Assembly (NCBI GenBank): GCA_964385425.1
Contig: CAYLOQ010000001.1
Span: forward strand, 86,602 to 150,601
Source of the DNA: Candidatus Woesearchaeota archaeon
GTDB taxonomy: Archaea; Nanobdellota; Nanobdellia; Pacearchaeales; GW2011-AR1
DNA length: 64,000 nucleotides
Reading direction: 5' to 3'
Both the position numbers and the translations under genes were made by a program. The notes beneath the pieces were generated by a model, which saw only the letters and a list, made by a program, of their open reading frames with translations, was not told the origin of the DNA and did not search any database. Shown piece by piece: positions 17,801 through 54,677 of the stretch. The number at the start of each line of letters is the position of its first letter. Position 1 is the stretch's first letter.

Positions 17801-18253
17801 ATGGAAAAGTATATGTTCATTCAAGAAGGTAATTTTGAAAAATCTAGGAAAAAAATAAGAGAAAATTCAAAAAAAAGGATTATTTTTTCTAGTAAAGACG
17901 ATGAACTAAATAGAAAAATTCTAGAAAAAGAAAAAATAAATGTTTTGCTCTTAAACCAGAGCCAGAGAAGAGACAGGCCAAAACAGAGGGGCTCTGGGCT
18001 CAATCACGTGCTAGCAAAAATTGCGAAAAAGAAAGGGGTAGATATAGGAATAAATTTAGATGAGATTCTGCAGGCAAAGGGAAAAGAGAAATCAAACATT
18101 CTTGCCAGGATAAGACAAAATATAAAGCTGTGTAATAAGAATAAACTAAATATGAAACTGCTTTCTCCAGAGGAAAATAAAAGAAACGATTACGACTTAA
18201 AATCTTTAGGATTAGTCCTTGGTATGCCAACATGGATGACAAACTCACTATAA
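17801..18253 (+). CDS. Putative RNase P protein subunit Rpp30-like (shortened)
   Basis: The C-terminal half (LNHVLAKIAKKKGVDIGINLDEIL...ARIRQNIKLCNKNKLNMKLLS) resembles the conserved Rpp30/Rnp3 PHP-domain C-terminus. At 150 aa it is shorter than typical, so the call is tentative. Confidence 0.35.
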   Translation: MEKYMFIQEGNFEKSRKKIRENSKKRIIFSSKDDELNRKILEKEKINVLLLNQSQRRDRPKQRGSGLNHVLAKIAKKKGVDIGINLDEILQAKGKEKSNILARIRQNIKLCNKNKLNMKLLSPEENKRNDYDLKSLGLVLGMPTWMTNSL

Positions 18254-18254
18254 A

Positions 18255-19781
18255 ATGGATATAAAGAAATTAATAGATTCATTAAGCCCTATTGAGAGAA
18301 AGATTCTCCCCCACATAGAAGAAGAGAGCTTGAGTGACATCTGCAAGAAGTCAAACTTGGACAAAATTAGTGCTGTAAGAGCGTTGGAGTATTTAAAAAA
18401 TAAAAAAATAATAAAGATATCTACTAAAAAAAAGAGAATAGTAGAGATAGGAACCAATGGAGCGCTCTACAAAAAAAAGGGCCTGCCAGAGAGAAGACTC
18501 TTAAATCTCTTGAATGAAAAAAGGATTCTTAAATTAGAAGATGCACAAGAGCAGAGCAGGTTGTCAGACGATGAATTTAAAGCTTCCCTGGGTGCATTGA
18601 AAAAAAAAGAACTTATAAATCTTAACAAAGGAAAAATAATTTTTAGTGCTAAAAAAGAAGAGATTTCTAAAAAGAGTTCTGAAGAATCCCTAATAGAGTC
18701 TCTTCCCCTAGAACATGATTCTCTCTCTAAAGAACAACTCCATGCCTTGAAATCTCTTCAGAGCAGAAGAGATATAGTACAAATAAAAGAAGAAAAAAAT
18801 ATAGAAATAGAAGTAACTGATTTAGGTAAAAAATTAATCAGGGGTGAGATAAAAGGACCAGGACTAATAGAACAAGTAACTCCTGAAACTCTAAGGAAAG
18901 ATTCTTCATGGAAAGGGAAAAAGTTCAGAAGATATGACATAACCCATCCTGTCCCAAGGATTAGTGGGGGGAAGAGACATTTTGTAAATCAGGCAGTTGA
19001 TTATGCGAGGGGGGTCTGGACAGACATGGGTTTTAAAGAAATGACTGGGAACCTTCTCGTAAGTTCTTTCTGGAACTTCGATGCGCTATTCACTGCACAA
19101 GATCATCCTGTTAGAGAGATGCAAGATACTTTTTTCATAGATAAAAAAATAGATCTACCAGAAAAAGCCTTAGTAAGAAGAGTAAAAGAGAGCCATGAAA
19201 TAGGTGTTGGAAAGGGGCATGAAAAAAGCAAGGGCTGGCAATATTCTTGGGATGAGGAAGAAGCGAAAAGACTAGTTATGAGAACACACACTACGTGTTT
19301 GTCTGCACAAACCCTAGCCAACCTAAAGAAAGAAAAAATGCCTGCTAAATTTTTCGCGATTGGTAAGTGTTTTAGAAACGAAACTGTTGATTGGAGTCAT
19401 AGTTTTGAATTCCATCAAACAGAGGGAATCGTCGTAGACAAGAATGTAAATTTTAGACACCTCCTAGGATACCTACAACAATTTTTCAAAAAAATGGGAT
19501 TTGAAAAAGTAAGATTCAGACCTGCTTATTTTTCATATACAGAACCCTCTGTAGAAATAGATGTATGGCACCCTGATAAAAAAGTCTGGTTGGAATTGGG
19601 TGGAGCTGGAATTTTCAGACCAGAGGTAACTATCCCTCTTCTTGGAGAAGCTATTCCTGTACTTGCATGGGGTCCTGGATTTGACAGGATATTGATGGAT
19701 TATTATAAAATAAAAGACCTCAGAGAGCTGTACAAAAACGACATTGCAGAACTAAGGAGAATGAAATTCTGGATAAAATAA
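18255..19781 (+). CDS. pheS: Phenylalanyl-tRNA synthetase alpha subunit (archaeal)
   Basis: 508 aa with N-terminal winged-helix repeats and class II core motifs (FFAIGKCFRNE, FEFHQTEG, GGAGIFRPEV). Confidence 0.85.
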   Translation: MDIKKLIDSLSPIERKILPHIEEESLSDICKKSNLDKISAVRALEYLKNKKIIKISTKKKRIVEIGTNGALYKKKGLPERRLLNLLNEKRILKLEDAQEQSRLSDDEFKASLGALKKKELINLNKGKIIFSAKKEEISKKSSEESLIESLPLEHDSLSKEQLHALKSLQSRRDIVQIKEEKNIEIEVTDLGKKLIRGEIKGPGLIEQVTPETLRKDSSWKGKKFRRYDITHPVPRISGGKRHFVNQAVDYARGVWTDMGFKEMTGNLLVSSFWNFDALFTAQDHPVREMQDTFFIDKKIDLPEKALVRRVKESHEIGVGKGHEKSKGWQYSWDEEEAKRLVMRTHTTCLSAQTLANLKKEKMPAKFFAIGKCFRNETVDWSHSFEFHQTEGIVVDKNVNFRHLLGYLQQFFKKMGFEKVRFRPAYFSYTEPSVEIDVWHPDKKVWLELGGAGIFRPEVTIPLLGEAIPVLAWGPGFDRILMDYYKIKDLRELYKNDIAELRRMKFWIK

Positions 19782-19782
19782 G

Positions 19783-20109
19783 ATGGAAATAGAAGAAATA
19801 AACAAGTTCATAAATGAAGAAATAAAAAGATTGGAAGAATATCATTCTGAAAAAGATAAAGATGAATTAACAATGGCTATGGGATTTAAGGTCGTTGAAG
19901 AAATTGGAGAATTATTTGAAGAAATGTTAAAAAAGAAGGGCTATCAAAGAAAGGACAAACTAGAAAAGCAAAGTGAAGAGGAAATAAAAAAGGAATTTGC
20001 CGATGTAATATTCACGGTTTTAATCTTGGCAAAAAGATTTGATATAGATATAGAAGACGCTATAAAAATAAAAATGAGTGAAATAAAAAAGAGAAAATAC
20101 ACAAAATAA
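19783..20109 (+). CDS. MazG-like nucleotide pyrophosphohydrolase
   Basis: All-alpha 108-aa protein with the EEIGELFEE metal-binding EExxE motif typical of MazG/NTP-PPase domains. It is wedged between pheS and pheT. Confidence 0.55.
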   Translation: MEIEEINKFINEEIKRLEEYHSEKDKDELTMAMGFKVVEEIGELFEEMLKKKGYQRKDKLEKQSEEEIKKEFADVIFTVLILAKRFDIDIEDAIKIKMSEIKKRKYTK

Positions 20110-20112
20110 AAA

Positions 20113-21759
20113 ATGGCCATAATAAACCTCAACAAAAAACTCTTTGAAAGGGAACTTGGAACCTTGGACTCCAAGATGAAGAACAGAATTGCTATGTTTG
20201 GGACTCCTATTGAAAGGATTACCAGAGACGAGATCCAGATAGAAATATTCCCGAACAGACCAGACCTGTCTTCATACCAAGGATTCAAAAGATCCTTCCT
20301 TGCTTTCTTAGGAAAGAAAACAGGGTTAAAGGAATACAGAATAAATAGTCCTGAAAAAAATTACCAGGTGTATATAGATTCTTCTGTGAGGGATGTTCGT
20401 CCTTATACTGCTTGTGCAATAATAAAGAATCTAAGATTGAATGACGAAAAAATAAAAGAGATAATTGAAATCCAGGAGAAACTGCACATCACTATCGGAA
20501 GAAAAAGAAAAAAAGTTGCAATTGGTATTTATCCCTTAGAAAAAATAAAGCTTCCGATAACCTTCAAGGCTTTAGAGCCAGACAAGATAAAGTTCATCCC
20601 CTTAGAAATGGGTAGAGAGCTTTCCGGACTTGAAATTCTTCAGAGACATCCTGCAGGTAGGAATTATGCCCATCTTTTAGCTGGAAAAGCTAAATTCCCA
20701 ATTTTCATAGATGCGAATAAACAGATATTAAGCATGCCCCCTATAATCAATTCTCAAGCAACAGGAAGAATAACAGAAAAAACCAGGGATGTTTTTGTAG
20801 AGTGCTCTGGATCTGATCTAAAAACTTTAAAACAATGTCTAAATATAATCGTTACGAGCTTAGCGGAAATGGGTGGAGATATTTATCAAATGAAACTAAA
20901 TTACGGAAAGACCCCGGATCTTACACCAAAAAAAGCGAGAATTTCCTTAGAAAATACGAACAAGCTCCTTGGATTGGAACTTAATGAAAAACAACTCAAA
21001 CAACTTATAGAGAAAATGGGCTATAATTATAAAGAGGGAACTGTTCAGGTCCCTGCTTGGAGAACAGATATTTTACACGAGGTCGACCTTATAGAAGACG
21101 TTGCAATAGCCTATGGTTATGATAATTTTATTCCAGAAATTCCAGATATATCCACAATCGGTGAAGAAAATCCGATAGAAGGGATAAAGAGAAAAATATC
21201 AGAAATTTTTTCTGGATTAGAAGTGCTGGAAGTTTCTAATTATCACCTAACAAATAAGAGAAACCAACTGATAAAAATGAGTGTTTTAGAAAAACAAGAG
21301 AAAAATCTTATAGAACTAGAAGAATCAAAAACAGATTTTACAATTTTAAGAAAAAACCTCACCCACCTTTTATTAAAAATTTTTTCAGAAAATGTAGATG
21401 CAGAGTACACACAAAAAATATTTGAAGTTGGAAAGGTTTTCAGATTAGAAGATTCCGGAAAAATAAAAGAGGTTGAAATGTTTGCCATGGCTCTCTCTCC
21501 AGGAAATTTCACAGAAATAAAACAAATATTAGAATATTTCTCAAGGATGACAGGCATACCCTTAAAATTGAAAGAGGGTGAAGAAACACCTTTACATTTT
21601 ATCAAAGGCAGAGTTGCTCAGGTATTTTTCAAAGGAGAGAAGATAGGGTTTCTTGGAGAAATCCATCCAAAAATTTTAAAAAGCTGGAAGATAAAAATGC
21701 CTGTAGCATTAATGGAAATTGAATTAGAAGAAATTTTTAAAGAATTGGAAAAAGATTAG
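20113..21759 (+). CDS. pheT: Phenylalanyl-tRNA synthetase beta subunit (archaeal)
   Basis: 548 aa with a B3/4 editing-like domain and a C-terminal class-II-like fold; it is operonic with pheS. Confidence 0.85.
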   Translation: MAIINLNKKLFERELGTLDSKMKNRIAMFGTPIERITRDEIQIEIFPNRPDLSSYQGFKRSFLAFLGKKTGLKEYRINSPEKNYQVYIDSSVRDVRPYTACAIIKNLRLNDEKIKEIIEIQEKLHITIGRKRKKVAIGIYPLEKIKLPITFKALEPDKIKFIPLEMGRELSGLEILQRHPAGRNYAHLLAGKAKFPIFIDANKQILSMPPIINSQATGRITEKTRDVFVECSGSDLKTLKQCLNIIVTSLAEMGGDIYQMKLNYGKTPDLTPKKARISLENTNKLLGLELNEKQLKQLIEKMGYNYKEGTVQVPAWRTDILHEVDLIEDVAIAYGYDNFIPEIPDISTIGEENPIEGIKRKISEIFSGLEVLEVSNYHLTNKRNQLIKMSVLEKQEKNLIELEESKTDFTILRKNLTHLLLKIFSENVDAEYTQKIFEVGKVFRLEDSGKIKEVEMFAMALSPGNFTEIKQILEYFSRMTGIPLKLKEGEETPLHFIKGRVAQVFFKGEKIGFLGEIHPKILKSWKIKMPVALMEIELEEIFKELEKD

Positions 21760-21780: not shown

Positions 21781-23196
21781 ATGGAAGATGTTTACGCCAA
21801 AATTAATTCAATAGAAAATTTAACATTGGCTTGGCAAAATGCAAAGAAAGGGAAGACTAAAAAAAGATATGTAAAAAGATTCCAGAAAAATCTAAAAAGT
21901 AATTTATTATCTCTACAAAAAGAACTTAAAAATCATACCTACAAAACAAGACCTCAAAAGAAATTCATATTGAGAGATCCTAAAACAAGAAAAATATTAA
22001 AATCCGTTTTTAGAGACAGAGTTATTCATCATGCGTTATGTAATATTATCACTCCTGTTTTTGAGGGGGGATTTATCTATGATTCACACGCCAATCAAAT
22101 AGGAAAGGGGACGCTGAAGGCGTTAGAAAGATTTGACAAATTTAAAAGAAAAGTTTCTAAAAATAACTCTAGAAATTGCTATGTTTTAAAGGCAGATATA
22201 AAACACTATTTTGAAGAGATAGATCATAAAATCTTGATAGATATCATAAAAAATAAGATTAAAGATGAGAGAGTTATATGGCTCGCCTATAAAATCTTAA
22301 AGAGTAGCAGAGAGAGAAACGAGCAATCCATTAAAGATAAAGGCATGCCTTTAGGAAATTTAACATCGCAATTTTTTGCTAACGTTTACCTTAATGAATT
22401 AGACAAATTTGTTAAACACAAGTTAAGAGCAAAATATTATATAAGATATGTTGATGATTTTGTAATTCTGCATAGATCTAAGGAACAGCTTGAAAAGTGG
22501 AAGAATAAAATAGATATCTTTCTAAAAGAAAAATTGGATTTAAAATTACATCCAAATAAATCTCAGATTTTAAAATTAGAAAAAGGGATTAAATTCTTAG
22601 GCTTTAGAATTTTCAATTATCATAAGCTTTTAAGAAAGAGCAATATGAAACATTTTGAAAGAAAATTAAATCATATGAAAATAATGCTTGAGGAAGATTT
22701 ATTAAATAGAGAAGAAATTGTAGAGAAATTAGAAGGTTGGCTAGCTTATGCTGTCAAGGGTAATACTCATAAATATAGAAAATATATAGTTCAGAATTTT
22801 AATAGACTTTTTCCTATAGATAAAACAATCCCAATAAAAAATAAGAAGAAACATTTTAACTTTTTGAAAAAGGTTGATGAAAGTACTTTGGAATTTTCAG
22901 TTCAAAAAACTCTTTTTATGTTTTGCAACGGAATGAAAATCAAAGACCTTGCTGAGAAAAGAGGGATAAAAGAAGGGACAGTGTGGAAGCATTTAATAAA
23001 TTTGATAGAGCACAAACAAATTTTAGTATCTCAAGTTTTGCCTAATAAAAAGATTAGACTAATTGCAAATAAGATTTATAATAAAAAAGATGGGCTGAAG
23101 GTGATTAAAAGAAGATTGAAAAGCCATAATATTAATTATGATGAAATTGCTTGTGTTTTGGCAAGTATAAAATCAAAAAATAAAAAAGTGTCCTAG
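21781..23196 (+). CDS. DGR-type reverse transcriptase
   Basis: RT motifs 1-7 are present (DRVIHHAL; SHANQIGKGT; LKADIKHYFEEIDH; YIRYVDDFVIL; LGFRI). Motif 4 reads LGNLTSQFFANVYLNELD, i.e. the DGR-specific [ILV]GxxxSQ rather than the group II intron QGxxxSP. There is a ~150-aa C-terminal extension with a possible HTH (IKDLAEKRGIKEGTVWKHL). Confidence 0.8.
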   Translation: MEDVYAKINSIENLTLAWQNAKKGKTKKRYVKRFQKNLKSNLLSLQKELKNHTYKTRPQKKFILRDPKTRKILKSVFRDRVIHHALCNIITPVFEGGFIYDSHANQIGKGTLKALERFDKFKRKVSKNNSRNCYVLKADIKHYFEEIDHKILIDIIKNKIKDERVIWLAYKILKSSRERNEQSIKDKGMPLGNLTSQFFANVYLNELDKFVKHKLRAKYYIRYVDDFVILHRSKEQLEKWKNKIDIFLKEKLDLKLHPNKSQILKLEKGIKFLGFRIFNYHKLLRKSNMKHFERKLNHMKIMLEEDLLNREEIVEKLEGWLAYAVKGNTHKYRKYIVQNFNRLFPIDKTIPIKNKKKHFNFLKKVDESTLEFSVQKTLFMFCNGMKIKDLAEKRGIKEGTVWKHLINLIEHKQILVSQVLPNKKIRLIANKIYNKKDGLKVIKRRLKSHNINYDEIACVLASIKSKNKKVS

Positions 23197-23215
23197 TAAG
23201 CAAGTCCAAGTTATT

Positions 23216-23300
23216 AAAGGCGAAACGACCATTGTCGTTGCTAAGATTAGTCCTCGCATTCGACCTAGCCCCGCTGCCGAGCCTGTTGACGTACCACGCC
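23216..23300 (-). repeat. DGR template repeat (TR); sense strand is the minus strand
   Basis: Its 85 bp are identical to 23705-23789 except at 9 positions. All 9 carry T in this copy and C in the other on the + strand, i.e. A vs G on the minus strand. The minus-strand sense reads AWYVNRLGSGARSNARTNLSNDNGRFA, with the AAC/AAT/AGC codons typical of TRs. Confidence 0.75.
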
Positions 23301-23467
23301 GCCCAAGTTAGCCTATTTACTTCTTGTTTTCACCACCACTTCACACATTAGGTGTCGTGATTGTATTTTATAAGAGCAAGCTCCCATCGTAAATAAACGT
23401 ATAGCCTAGCTTACTTCGTAAAAACGGTTGCTAGGACAAAATTATATGATAAAAACGCTATAAAAAT

Positions 23468-24400
23468 CTATTGACTTGTTAAATCATCAATCGCTTTTCT
23501 AACCTCAGACTCATTAGCAGAACCAATATAATCTCCAATTACAGAATAAATTTGATCAGTAGTTAATAGTCTTTTTCTTAATTGGTCTCTTTCATCTAAA
23601 GCACTTCCAATTTGATCAATTTGTCCAGATTGTAACGTTCCTTCTAAACTTTGAAGTTGAACTCTTGCTTTATCGATGTCAACCTTAGCGTCTCCGACGC
23701 CATAAAAGGCGAAACGACCATCGCCGCCGCTAAGATTAGCCCTCGCACTCGACCCAGCCCCGCCGCCGAGCCTGCTGACGTACCACGCCTTCAAGACTCC
23801 TTTATCGCTAACATCAGGCAAATCTTGTCCCATCATTGTAACATCTTTATCATTAATATATTCTCTTCCTAATTCAAATGTCTTGCCAATAATTTCTGCA
23901 ACTTCATCTCCCGACCTTGCGAATTTAGAATCAACATGATCTGGATGTCCTAATTTTGTTAAAAGTAATTTGTGCTTCATTGCTTGACTTTCTGTTAAAT
24001 CTTTATTAAGAATTAATCCTTTTCTTTGAAGAGTATAAACTCCGTTTCCTTCTAATTTTTCCCATCTGCCGTCAACATCCAAGTTTACTCCGTAATTCAC
24101 TAGCTCTTCATCAGGATTGATTAAGCCTAAACCAAATCTAGCAACCTCTGTCAATTCTCTACTTCCAGTCTCATAAGGTAAAATAACTTTTACAGTTTCT
24201 CCTTTTGTTGCTGATAATGTTGAAGTATCCCAATATTGATCCCTTATTTCAGGATTTTCAATTCCATATTTTCTTATGTCAGCTTCTGAAAGAATAACAC
24301 CTTCGCCTTTTTCATATCTTGCTAAAAGCACTGGTGAGGTATCTACATTTCTACCATAACAAGGTTCTATTGTCCTTCCTTCTAATTGGATGTTTTCCAT
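23468..24400 (-). CDS. DGR target (variable) protein
   Basis: 310 aa with no signal peptide. The VR lies at aa ~205-231 (KAWYVSRLGGGAGSSARANLSGGDGRFAFYGVGD) and is followed by an ~80-aa helical C-terminal tail. Confidence 0.7.
   Translation of the reverse strand: MENIQLEGRTIEPCYGRNVDTSPVLLARYEKGEGVILSEADIRKYGIENPEIRDQYWDTSTLSATKGETVKVILPYETGSRELTEVARFGLGLINPDEELVNYGVNLDVDGRWEKLEGNGVYTLQRKGLILNKDLTESQAMKHKLLLTKLGHPDHVDSKFARSGDEVAEIIGKTFELGREYINDKDVTMMGQDLPDVSDKGVLKAWYVSRLGGGAGSSARANLSGGDGRFAFYGVGDAKVDIDKARVQLQSLEGTLQSGQIDQIGSALDERDQLRKRLLTTDQIYSVIGDYIGSANESEVRKAIDDLTSQ
23687..23701 (-). promoter_or_regulatory. GC hairpin immediately 3' of the VR (5-6 bp stem GCGTC/GACGC, loop GGA on the sense strand)
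   Basis: A perfect inverted repeat, g-GCGTC-GGA-GACGC-t, 4 nt downstream (sense) of the VR homology end. The TR has no counterpart. Confidence 0.5.
23705..23789 (-). repeat. DGR variable repeat (VR) inside the target gene
   Basis: It matches the TR at 76 of 85 positions. It encodes AWYVSRLGGGAGSSARANLSGGDGRFA in frame in ORF 23468-24400. Confidence 0.75.
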
Positions 24401-24482: not shown

Positions 24483-24968
24483 CTAACCGAAGTAACCTTT
24501 ATTGTTTGCTTCTGATTTGTTATCCCAATTTTGATTTATTTTATCCAAAATAACCAAAAAGTCTCTCTTTATTTCCTTCCATAGATCGTAAGAATACCTT
24601 ACAAATTCAGCTTCTTTTTCTTCAGAAAATTCTGTGTCAAGCCTGATCAAGGTAATTTCATTTTTTGTAAGTTTTTTATAGATGTCTGATGCCTTTTTTC
24701 TCTCTTCTGTTCCAAGGGTCTTAATAATAGAAAAAACAAACATAGGAGCATTTACGGGATTAAGAAGAGTTTCTATAAATCTCATATATCCCCCCAATTT
24801 ATCTGCCATGAACTTCCTTATCTCCCTTATCAAGATATCTGTCTCAACCTCTGCCGCTTTTTCTATCTGAAAATCTTCGTTAAGTTCCCTAAAATCAGGA
24901 AGGTCGTATTTCCTTTTGATTACTTCATAATTTTTCTTTAATTTTTCCAGTTTAGATTTTTCTTCCAT
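24483..24968 (-). CDS. Hypothetical helical protein upstream of the DGR target, a candidate DGR accessory factor
   Basis: 161 aa, predicted all-alpha and charged, co-oriented with the target gene. No Avd signature could be verified. Confidence 0.35.
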   Translation of the reverse strand: MEEKSKLEKLKKNYEVIKRKYDLPDFRELNEDFQIEKAAEVETDILIREIRKFMADKLGGYMRFIETLLNPVNAPMFVFSIIKTLGTEERKKASDIYKKLTKNEITLIRLDTEFSEEKEAEFVRYSYDLWKEIKRDFLVILDKINQNWDNKSEANNKGYFG

Positions 24969-26039: not shown

Positions 26040-26097
26040 AATAATATAAAAAAGTATGCGAAATGGAATAATTGAACTCAGGACATTTACATTAAAA

Positions 26098-26168
26098 GCC
26101 TCGAGTGGGATTTGAACCCGCGACCCCCACCTTACCGAGGTGGTGCTCTACCACTGAGCTATCGAGGC
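26098..26168 (-). tRNA. tRNA-Thr (anticodon GGU), atypical
   Basis: Reverse complement GCCTCGATAGCTCAGTGGTAGAGCACCACCTCGGTAAGGTGGGGGTCGCGGGTTCAAATCCCACTCGAGGC folds as a cloverleaf with a 7/7 acceptor stem, a TTCAAAT T-loop, and anticodon loop UCGGUAA. There is an A-C mismatch in the T-stem and a C at position 33 where U is almost universal. Confidence 0.65.
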
Positions 26169-27078: not shown

Positions 27079-27151
27079 AGCCCCATAGTCTAGTGGTCAA
27101 AGATACAACCCTCTGGAGGTTGGGACCCAGGTTCGAATCCTGGTGGGGCTA
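27079..27151 (+). tRNA. tRNA-Gln (anticodon CUG)
   Basis: AGCCCCA acceptor stem with an A1:U72 pair (typical of archaeal tRNA-Gln), anticodon stem CAACC/GGTTG with loop CUCUGGA, and T-arm CCAGG-TTCGAAT-CCTGG. A TATA-like ttttaata lies ~28 bp upstream. Confidence 0.8.
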
Positions 27152-30707: not shown

Positions 30708-30812
30708 GCCCCTATAGTTCAGAGGCCAAGAATGCGGCCCTCTCAAATGGCAACTTGTTGACGTTTGTCGTAGAGCACGGCCGTGACCTGAGTTCGAATC
30801 TCAGTGGGGGCG
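30708..30812 (+). tRNA. tRNA-Glu (anticodon CUC) with a 32-nt intron at the canonical 37/38 site (intron 30746-30777)
   Basis: Acceptor GCCCCTA/TGGGGGC, D-arm GTTC-AGAGGCCAA-GAAT, anticodon stem CGGCC...GGCCG, and T-arm CTGAG-TTCGAAT-CTCAG. Removing 30746-30777 leaves the anticodon loop CUCUCAC. Confidence 0.75.
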
Positions 30813-54563: not shown

Positions 54564-54677
54564 GGCTCCGTAGCTCAGCTTGGTCAGAGCACCAGACTCT
54601 TAGCAGAACCGAGGTTCCGCACCTCCTATTAATTGAGAGATATCTGGGTGTCGAGGGTTCAAATCCCTCCGGGGCCA
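54564..54677 (+). tRNA. tRNA-Lys (anticodon CUU) with a 39-nt intron at 37/38 (intron 54603-54641)
   Basis: Acceptor GGCTCCG/CGGGGCC, D-arm GCTC-AGCTTGGTCA-GAGC, anticodon stem CCAGA...TCTGG, and T-arm GAGGG-TTCAAAT-CCCTC. The spliced loop is CUCUUAA. A TATA-like tttttaaag lies ~28 bp upstream. Confidence 0.75.

Follow-up and report, generated by a model that had tools for sequence, protein, structure and literature searches.

The stretch analyzed here, referred to below as the window, comprises 64,000 nt from a Candidatus Woesearchaeota archaeon; both strands were read and the open reading frames (ORFs) were listed. Its positions 21781-24400 hold a candidate diversity-generating retroelement (DGR), which consists of two genes and an intervening RNA that contains one copy of a repeat pair. 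The reverse transcriptase (RT) gene starts 21 nt past the stop codon of pheT, and the cassette as a whole lies between pheT and a host ORF. The parts that define the element are as follows.

21781..23196, plus strand: DGR reverse transcriptase gene, 471 aa, with the RT domain at aa 7-332 and a C-terminal extension that carries HTH_40 at aa 373-460
23468..24400, minus strand: target (variable protein) gene, 310 aa, with an AvpA-like C-type-lectin domain at aa 1-235 followed by a helical tail of ~75 aa
23210..23300, minus strand: template repeat (TR), 91 nt with 22 adenines, starting 3 nt past the match to the Rfam RNA family RT-16
23699..23789, minus strand: variable repeat (VR), aa ~204-234 of the target, coinciding with hypervariable columns across homologues
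23687..23701, minus strand: hairpin at the 3' edge of the VR (GGCGTC-GGA-GACGCT, with a GRA triloop), within the coding sequence and read from it

The original prediction had described an 85-bp repeat with nine differences between its copies, all at template adenines. The repeat is real, and it is longer than described. Ungapped alignment of 23216-23300 with 23705-23789 gave nine mismatches, each a T in the intergenic copy and a C in the ORF copy on the plus strand; the sense strand of ORF 24400-23468 is the minus strand, where the same nine read A>G. The two copies share an A-free 3' end, GGTCGTTTCGCCTTT, and the homology continues beyond it for 6 nt toward the sense 3' end (AATAAC in the TR, TATGGC in the VR), adding one A>T and two A>G differences. 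The full repeat thus spans 91 nt (TR 23300-23210, VR 23789-23699, sense on the minus strand). Tabulating the mismatches by template base, a check proposed with the prediction, confined all of them to TR adenines: 12 of 12 fell on the 22 adenines and none on the 69 remaining positions (hypergeometric P = 2e-9). They comprised 11 A>G, one A>T and no A>C. When every adenine of the TR was masked, the pattern matched two sites in the 64-kb window, the TR and the VR, and none in 100 shuffles; this search over the window found no further VRs or targets.

Translated in the frame of the VR, the TR reads AAWYVNRLGSGARSNARTNLSNDNGRFAFNN, as given in the original prediction. All of its adenines occupy codon position 1 or 2, seven of the codons are AAY, and no stop codon can be reached. 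Variation is possible at fifteen codons, which allows up to ~5e12 protein variants. Both copies form GC-rich islands (53-63% GC, against ~30% for the genome). The hairpin past the VR is preserved by compensatory variants at related loci (GCGCC/GGCGC in L031 and AACGTC/GACGTT in L044; L numbers designate such loci throughout). Most relatives carry a second hairpin, ACGCC-GAA-GGCGT, ~10 nt past the first, which encodes TNAEGV (e.g., L001:3850-3880). Thus, features by which DGRs are recognized were found together at this locus, namely TR/VR differences at template adenines only, a VR inside a coding target whose fold is of the C-type-lectin rather than the Ig kind, TR adenines confined to the first two positions of their codons, and a pair of initiation of mutagenic homing sequences (IMH in the VR, IMH* in the TR) with an inverted repeat downstream of the VR.

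The RT was examined by domain, motif, sequence, and fold comparison. Pfam assigned RVT_1 (4.5e-24, aa 70-277) and HTH_40 (1.9e-15, aa 373-460). The two motifs on which the prediction had relied were located at aa 191 (LGNLTSQ, the [ILV]GxxxSQ form of motif 4 that marks the DGR clade) and aa 223 (YVDDFVIL, containing YxDD). Among PDB sequences, the best match was the RT of the Bordetella phage DGR, bRT (8ub7_A; E 1.5e-44, 155.9 bits, aa 7-332), while the best group II intron RT scored ~70 bits lower (86 bits, 1.8e-23). The AlphaFold model of the RT (pLDDT 81.5) also had 8ub7_A as its best fold match (TM 0.85, 31% identity). Residues of bRT with roles in template or dNTP contact, adenine mutagenesis or catalysis (D138, D215 and D216; 10.1101/2023.10.23.563531, PMC7826257) could be paired with those of the window's RT in the sequence alignment. 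Identical pairs (bRT/here) were K29/K25, F66/F62, R74/R70, I76/I72, D138/D139, G182/G192, Q187/Q197, D215/D225 and D216/D226; I181 of bRT is replaced conservatively by L191. By sequence and model comparison, the enzyme is thus closer to the DGR RT than to the RTs of group II introns or retrons, as had been expected.

We nevertheless weighed whether the RT might come from a group II intron, retron or defense system (DRT/Abi), with the repeat next to it by coincidence. The top NCBIfam model is indeed a group II intron RT/maturase, Drt3a, Drt2 and retron models match weakly, and some relatives of the RT are labeled "retron-type RT" by their sources. However, the best NCBIfam score, 164.6 bits, lies far under the cut-off of 300, and the group II, retron, DRT and Abi RT models all stay far below their family cut-offs, while bRT exceeds group II in sequence score and is also the best fold. 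Motif 4 is of the DGR form, the relation between TR and VR explains the locus completely, and Rfam finds only RT-16 at the locus and no intron or retron RNA. We attach almost no weight to this alternative.

The C-terminal 132 aa of the RT gave no meaningful sequence match in the PDB; in the full-length AlphaFold model, they form a helical HTH and a three-helix bundle. The RT family is large, with >5000 matches, and all 120 of those listed carry both RVT_1 and HTH_40. Named relatives among the matches listed come from Pacearchaeota, Woesearchaeota, Nanoarchaeota and unclassified archaea, with one Paceibacterota record of the candidate phyla radiation (CPR). A limited literature search found no paper linking HTH_40 to RTs.

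The target protein matched no family in Pfam or NCBIfam. It has 114 homologues; the few that are named come from DPANN archaea and are annotated as hypothetical proteins. When the homologues are aligned, a hypervariable block appears exactly at the VR, set in the conserved frame KAW.V..L....A.S.A...L....GRFAF. The fold is that of an AvpA-type C-type lectin, with inserts 2-4, the VR after beta4' and an IMH-encoded beta5. A search of the PDB with the family profile found no chain; homology to AvpA is not detectable by sequence, and the relationship is visible only by fold comparison. A viral origin was considered and set aside; no relatives of the target were found in IMG/VR viral contigs.

Scans with the target alignment yielded 15 genome loci and 36 metagenome loci, and L054 was found via its RT instead. 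A full-length or near-full-length RNA with a TR was present at 19 of the scanned-out loci, besides the window (in L031, only to about model position 258). We counted 14 distinct cassettes (18 with duplicates and same-strain copies), taking duplicates and same-strain copies once and leaving out the chimeric, RT-less L003 and L020. The order of target followed by RNA and TR is fixed across the cassettes, and the RT is convergent in all but L054. Flanking genes differ at every cassette locus, and clustering of the ORFs of 13 loci found nothing in common beyond the RT, the RNA with its TR, and the target. The cassette is thus a self-contained unit of three parts that has come to lie in many contexts. 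This bears on the statement that the element was inserted directly after pheT: the adjacency holds, and the insertion itself is plausible given the different neighborhood of every related locus.

Among these relatives, a sister strain whose target shares 80% protein identity with that of the window was assembled from three metagenomic samples (L001/L026, L052 and L053). Its copies are identical over 2650 nt of target, RNA and RT save for 11-13 differences, all of which lie in the VR. The differences fall at 16 positions, every one of them a TR adenine, where only A, G and T occur; the TR is identical among the copies. At the protein level (P0002-P0005), every difference lies in the VR: 6-10 of its 32 residues differ between copies, and the remaining sequence is 100% identical. 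This combination of an invariant TR and a hypervariable VR across three samples is mutagenic retrohoming caught in nature, in a cassette that, like the one in the window, has no gene for the accessory protein Avd. For the window's own strain, a single assembly exists.

Pooling 11 loci, we found that 132 of 136 TR/VR mismatches were at TR adenines. These data bear on the possibility that the repeat pair is an ordinary segmental duplication of the 3' part of the target, diverged by point mutation and unrelated to the RT. In L003/L020, a TR-like segment is indeed followed by the target 3' end in a second copy, and TRs may stem from duplication. The spectrum refutes this explanation for the window: all 12 differences lie at the adenines of one copy and run in one direction, the pooled loci repeat the pattern, and same-strain variation is limited to the same kind of position. 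In addition, an RT of the DGR type always accompanies the repeat. The probability left to simple duplication is negligible.

The adenine substitutions of the 11 loci comprised 94 A>G, 35 A>T and three A>C. For bRT-Avd in vitro, template adenines lead to misinsertion of A at 22%, of C at 18% and of G at 12%, so that A>T exceeds A>G and A>G exceeds A>C (PMC7826257). The two spectra differ most clearly in A>C, which is nearly missing here; with so little A>C, an AAY codon would give access to only nine amino acids instead of 15. The A>G change in the last codon is fixed at every locus, and it probably stems from a difference between IMH and IMH* that the hairpin maintains. Elsewhere, selection or assembly bias may have contributed to the A>G skew.

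An excess of A>G could alternatively arise if adenosines of the template RNA were deaminated to inosine and then faithfully reverse transcribed. The share of A>G, 94/132 adenine changes overall and 11/12 in the window, would agree with this, and bRT treats hypoxanthine as G with a fidelity of 96-97% (PMC7826257). Yet 27% of the changes (35/132) are A>T, which is impossible from inosine, and no deaminase is linked to the cassette among the neighbors of 13 loci. Moreover, the residues that promote adenine misincorporation in bRT are matched here (R74 by R70, I181 conservatively by L191), and the A>G position fixed in all loci probably reflects the IMH/IMH* difference and selection on the hairpin. 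We therefore judge deamination a very improbable source of the spectrum.

The spacer between the stop codons of target and RT, 271 nt, is better conserved than the proteins, and it contains the signals of the template RNA listed here.

23459..23466, minus strand: putative archaeal TATA box TTTTTATA, 2 nt past the target stop and ~22 nt before the first helix
23303..23435, minus strand: 5' structured domain of the template RNA, Rfam RF03019 (RT-16 RNA), cmscan 73.2 bits with a gathering score of 50
23175..23209, minus strand: 3' tail of the template RNA, from RNAalifold and pair counts, overlapping in antisense the RT stop and last codons
23187-23175, minus strand: T-run after the last helix, a likely archaeal terminator

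The RF03019 match qualifies as a member of the family; it covers the full model (1-158) and stops 3 nt before the TR. Seven related loci gave scores of 70-78 bits in the same place. An alignment of 13-14 copies supported a multi-helix fold, with 98.8% of cells paired and compensatory changes at 11 pairs; none of 500 shuffles reached the observed values, and the slid controls collapsed. A long-range helix, AGUAAG (23415-23410) with CUUGCU (23204-23199), brackets the TR and includes two pairs with compensatory changes. Further helices lie upstream of the TR: a 10-bp helix (23398-23389 / 23320-23311) ends ~10 nt before it, a stem-loop (23387-23370) is followed by the invariant AUAAAAUACA, and a covarying hairpin occupies 23365-23331. 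The long first hairpin of the RT-16 model is largely unpaired in this subfamily, and its 3' arm pairs with the tail that follows the TR. An outer helix, GUCCUAG (23437-23431) with CUAGGAC (23196-23190), is possible and shows one compensatory change, in L054. Instead of it, the Rfam model has a local hairpin (CCUAGC/GCUAGG); either structure stays paired in all 14 sequences and the two are equally possible, the one compensatory change favoring the long-range form.

The putative TATA box TTTTTATA is invariant in 14 loci, and the ~20 nt that follow vary in sequence and are constant in length. Judged from these signals, the template would be a discrete RNA of ~260 nt with its own archaeal promoter and a T-run terminator, which give its predicted ends. 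The RT gene, which runs on the other strand, has its stop codon within the last helix and its final lysine codons antisense to the T-run (window 23175-23196). Because of this antisense overlap with the closing strand of the RNA and with the T-run, the two convergent units share ~20 bp.

The RNA motifs RT-1 to RT-19 were defined solely by their nearness to RT genes (Weinberg et al. 2017, PMC5737381). RT-10 was tied to the Bordetella DGR in that work and other RT motifs were speculated to serve DGRs (PMC5737381), with RT-16 left unassigned. The window's copy adjoins an RT gene, which is the very basis on which RT-16 was defined. It differs in that a TR always follows within ~3-10 nt of RT-16 and in that the functional RNA reaches ~115 nt beyond the Rfam model. 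RT-16 is thus the 5' part of a DGR template RNA.

Together, the mismatch spectrum, the kinship of the RT and the variation in the sister cassette support the claim of a DGR, and we conclude with high confidence that 21781-24400 is a functional-looking chromosomal DGR of the DPANN/Nanoarchaeota (AvpA) type, with a lectin-fold target, a template RNA of ~260 nt and a convergent RT-HTH_40. The element had been called complete, and this holds for the RT, the TR and the target with its VR but not for an Avd-type accessory gene, which is absent. An accessory protein (Avd, HRDC, MSL or CH1) is common, though not universal, among DGRs.

Several observations weigh against this conclusion. A Pfam search of the 23 small ORFs of the window found no Avd (PF05635) or HRDC, and clustering of all ORFs of the 13 loci found no conserved gene next to the cassette besides RT and target; the Avd result covers the window ORFs and the cassette neighbors, and such a gene may lie elsewhere in the genome. 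Avd is essential in the Bordetella system. The substitutions in the window are nearly all A>G (11/12), unlike the Bordetella spectrum. An 18-nt in-frame deletion at 23660-23700 removes the second post-VR hairpin. The window's strain is known from one assembly, a 505-kb scaffold, so that VR heterogeneity is documented for the sister cassette rather than for this population. Decayed cassettes elsewhere (L003, L017 and L036) indicate that erosion happens. As to the accessory gene, ~29% of catalogued DGRs are without one (Wu et al. 2018, PMC5758913). The cassette is therefore within known DGR variation, and its RT extension is identified as HTH_40. We infer that it works independently of Avd.

Some of the same observations would fit a genuine DGR that is no longer active in this genome, its VR being the frozen product of past retrohoming. 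The single assembly, the decayed relatives (L003/L020, L017, L036 and L021), the missing second hairpin and the lack of a detected Avd point that way. Against it, no part is broken: the RT ORF runs its full length and keeps the residues for catalysis and fidelity, the first hairpin is preserved, as are the helices of the RNA, and an 80%-identical sister cassette, equally without Avd, is demonstrably active. Furthermore, TR and VR are identical at 69 of 69 non-A positions, which argues that homing was recent. Activity in the window's genome thus appears likely, on the strength of the intact parts and of this identity, and we consider a silenced element unlikely.

A working scheme for such an active DGR can be drawn largely by analogy with the Bordetella phage system. 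The RT would bind the structured RNA and copy the TR into cDNA, starting at the TR 3' end and proceeding toward the RT-16 domain. Misincorporation would occur only opposite adenines, mostly as A>G, then as A>T and almost never as A>C, and the cDNA would replace the VR of the target gene, with the A-free IMH-like end and the GRA-triloop hairpin marking the VR as recipient. The expected outcome would be the ~5e12 variants of 15 codons, displayed on the ligand-binding face of the lectin fold. The 10-bp helix, the stem-loop and the A-rich strand may act as a barrier that ends cDNA synthesis, as the TR/VR homology stops ~10 nt away, and the long-range duplex (23415-23410 / 23204-23199) may position the TR 3' end for priming. 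Because the AAT codon at the end of the TR is variable, cDNA synthesis would start 3' of 23215, in a region made up of a UUGGA linker and the duplex. A computational search did not locate the priming site.

We tentatively extend this scheme to the cassette family, which could represent an Avd-independent form of DGR with a rearranged ribonucleoprotein; as a joint proposal, this is possible but falls short of an even chance. Under it, the 5' RT-16 structure would position the RT, prime and stop synthesis, with the long-range duplex bringing RT-16 to the 3' end of the TR, and the priming nucleotide may lie in the upstream strand of that duplex. The fused HTH_40 would, by analogy, take over the role of Avd in holding nucleic acid. 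The error spectrum would be distinct, with almost no A>C and 9 rather than 15 amino acids from an AAY codon.

Among DPANN archaea, no other RT type comes near DGRs in abundance (PMC8632793); with DGRs dominant there and AvpA-type targets already solved, one more DGR changes little. The value of this one lies in its compactness: a self-contained cassette of ~2.6 kb, composed of two genes and one RNA without Avd, with natural evidence of activity in a sister cassette. The orphan motif RT-16 gains a role as the scaffold of a DGR template RNA. The cassette is a clean candidate for studying how a DGR RT works without Avd, and it lets one ask whether the Bordetella-type module of duplex, stem-loop and A-rich strand serves here in a permuted order. 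Tools for directed evolution are another field in which a mutagenic RT system reduced to two components would be attractive.

The genes upstream of the RT (17801-21759) are housekeeping genes, encoding an RNase P p30-like protein, PheS, a MazG-like pyrophosphohydrolase and PheT. The ORF at 24483-24968 (161 aa, upstream of the target) was considered in the search for Avd and rejected as a host gene; it has no Pfam match and is absent from other cassette loci, and a homologue lies near pheST in L013, which has no RT. L013 itself carries a target homologue beside pheS-pheT, without RT or TR. Ordinary tRNA genes, Thr-GGT (26097-26168) and Gln-CTG (27079-27151), lie 1.7-2.7 kb from the cassette. 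Two long Rfam tRNA matches unreported by ARAGORN, at 54564-54677 (+; 114 nt) and 30708-30812 (+; 105 nt), are probably intron-containing archaeal tRNA genes.

Variant layouts were also found. L054:4001-6640, from a record labeled Paceibacterota (CPR) by one source, holds an RT with 64% identity, the same kind of RT-16/TR RNA and, as target, a related protein of 270 aa. Its RT gene precedes the other parts on a shared strand; the orientation of the RT is thus not fixed in this cassette family. Genes for phage capsid and cement proteins adjoin an RT-HTH_40 relative at L056:4001-8008 and L057 that is longer, at 568 aa, and 57% identical, which suggests that the RT family is also present in putative DPANN viruses or proviruses. 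We found no RT-16, no other Rfam match and no TR/VR within 4 kb at the distant RT-HTH_40 loci L056-L059, and the cassette architecture is therefore not universal in that RT family.

Decay takes several forms among the relatives. In L003:7045-7700, on a contig shared with L020, RT-16 precedes a hybrid repeat, the 5' half of which resembles the TR and the 3' half the VR; after it come the post-VR hairpin and a second copy of the C-terminal tail of the target, and there is no RT within 6 kb. This copy looks like a product of TR/VR recombination and is a hint that duplication of the target 3' end gives rise to TRs. L017:4956-5118 retains the RT-16 domain, with TR and RT gone. In L036:857-987, the VR is joined directly to the 3' flank of the TR, by a VR/TR recombination deletion or as an assembly chimera. 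A TGA in the hairpin loop of L021:4694-4714 ends the target right after the VR, and several target homologues of ~237-260 aa may have the same origin.

The closest known counterparts are the AvpA DGRs of Nanoarchaeota (DUSEL4; PDB 5ioo). AvpA has a short internal VR, a predicted helical C-terminal extension and a post-VR hairpin in its coding sequence (Handa et al. 2016, PMC5006420), and Nanoarchaeota DGRs have GRA trinucleotide loops and a G-rich IMH against an A-rich IMH* (Paul et al. 2015, PMC4372165). The window shares the DPANN host, the internal VR of ~30 aa followed by a helical extension, the in-ORF hairpin with a GRA triloop, and G in the IMH where the IMH* has A. Segments of its target (GETVKVILPY, HPDHVDSKF and GRFAFYGV) resemble the GxxVxV, HPxxx..F and RFxxGV motifs of AvpA. 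In contrast, sequence identity to AvpA is 13%, the tail measures ~75 aa rather than 46, the RT is convergent and carries HTH_40, and there is no small basic ORF between RT and target as a stand-in for Avd.

With the prototype, the DGR of Bordetella phage BPP-1 (mtd-avd-TR-brt), for which cryo-EM structures of bRT with Avd and RNA exist (8ub7 and related; 10.1101/2023.10.23.563531), the window has in common the RT family, TR/VR differences at adenines only, a lectin-fold target, and an A-free, GC-rich VR 3' end followed by a hairpin. In the Bordetella ribonucleoprotein, the segments on either side of the TR pair with each other and make up, along with a stem-loop and unpaired adenosines, a "cPRT Stop" beside the template:primer duplex, and such duplexes were predicted in 207 DGRs with Avd (10.1101/2023.10.23.563531). 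Here, too, segments flanking the TR pair across it, and the duplex, stem-loop and A-rich strand resemble that element. BPP-1 has Avd and the window none; the BPP-1 RNA has a 140-nt spacer 3' of the TR (Rfam RT-10), whereas here the large structured part lies 5' of the TR (RT-16) and only ~25 nt follow it. The BPP-1 element is phage-borne, while the window's is chromosomal, with the RT on the strand opposite TR and target. Finally, bRT makes A>T (22%), A>G (18%) and A>C (12%; PMC7826257), compared to A>G > A>T >> A>C here.

The CPR/DPANN DGR set of Paul et al. (2017) and Wu et al. (2018, PMC5758913) resembles the window in its host groups, in targets mostly without known domains, in the C-terminal extensions of its RTs and in including accessory-free class A architectures. 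In the work of Wu et al., 90% of CPR/DPANN DGRs had architecture B3, TR-(avd)-RT, and ~20% of DGR RTs carried unexplained C-terminal extensions of up to ~150 aa (PMC5758913). The features that the original prediction had regarded as atypical (internal VR, in-ORF hairpin, lack of Avd and RT orientation) are therefore not new, as all had already been described (PMC5006420, PMC4372165, PMC5758913). What distinguishes the window from that set is the combination of no avd, the target-TR order, a convergent RT and an extension that is HTH_40.

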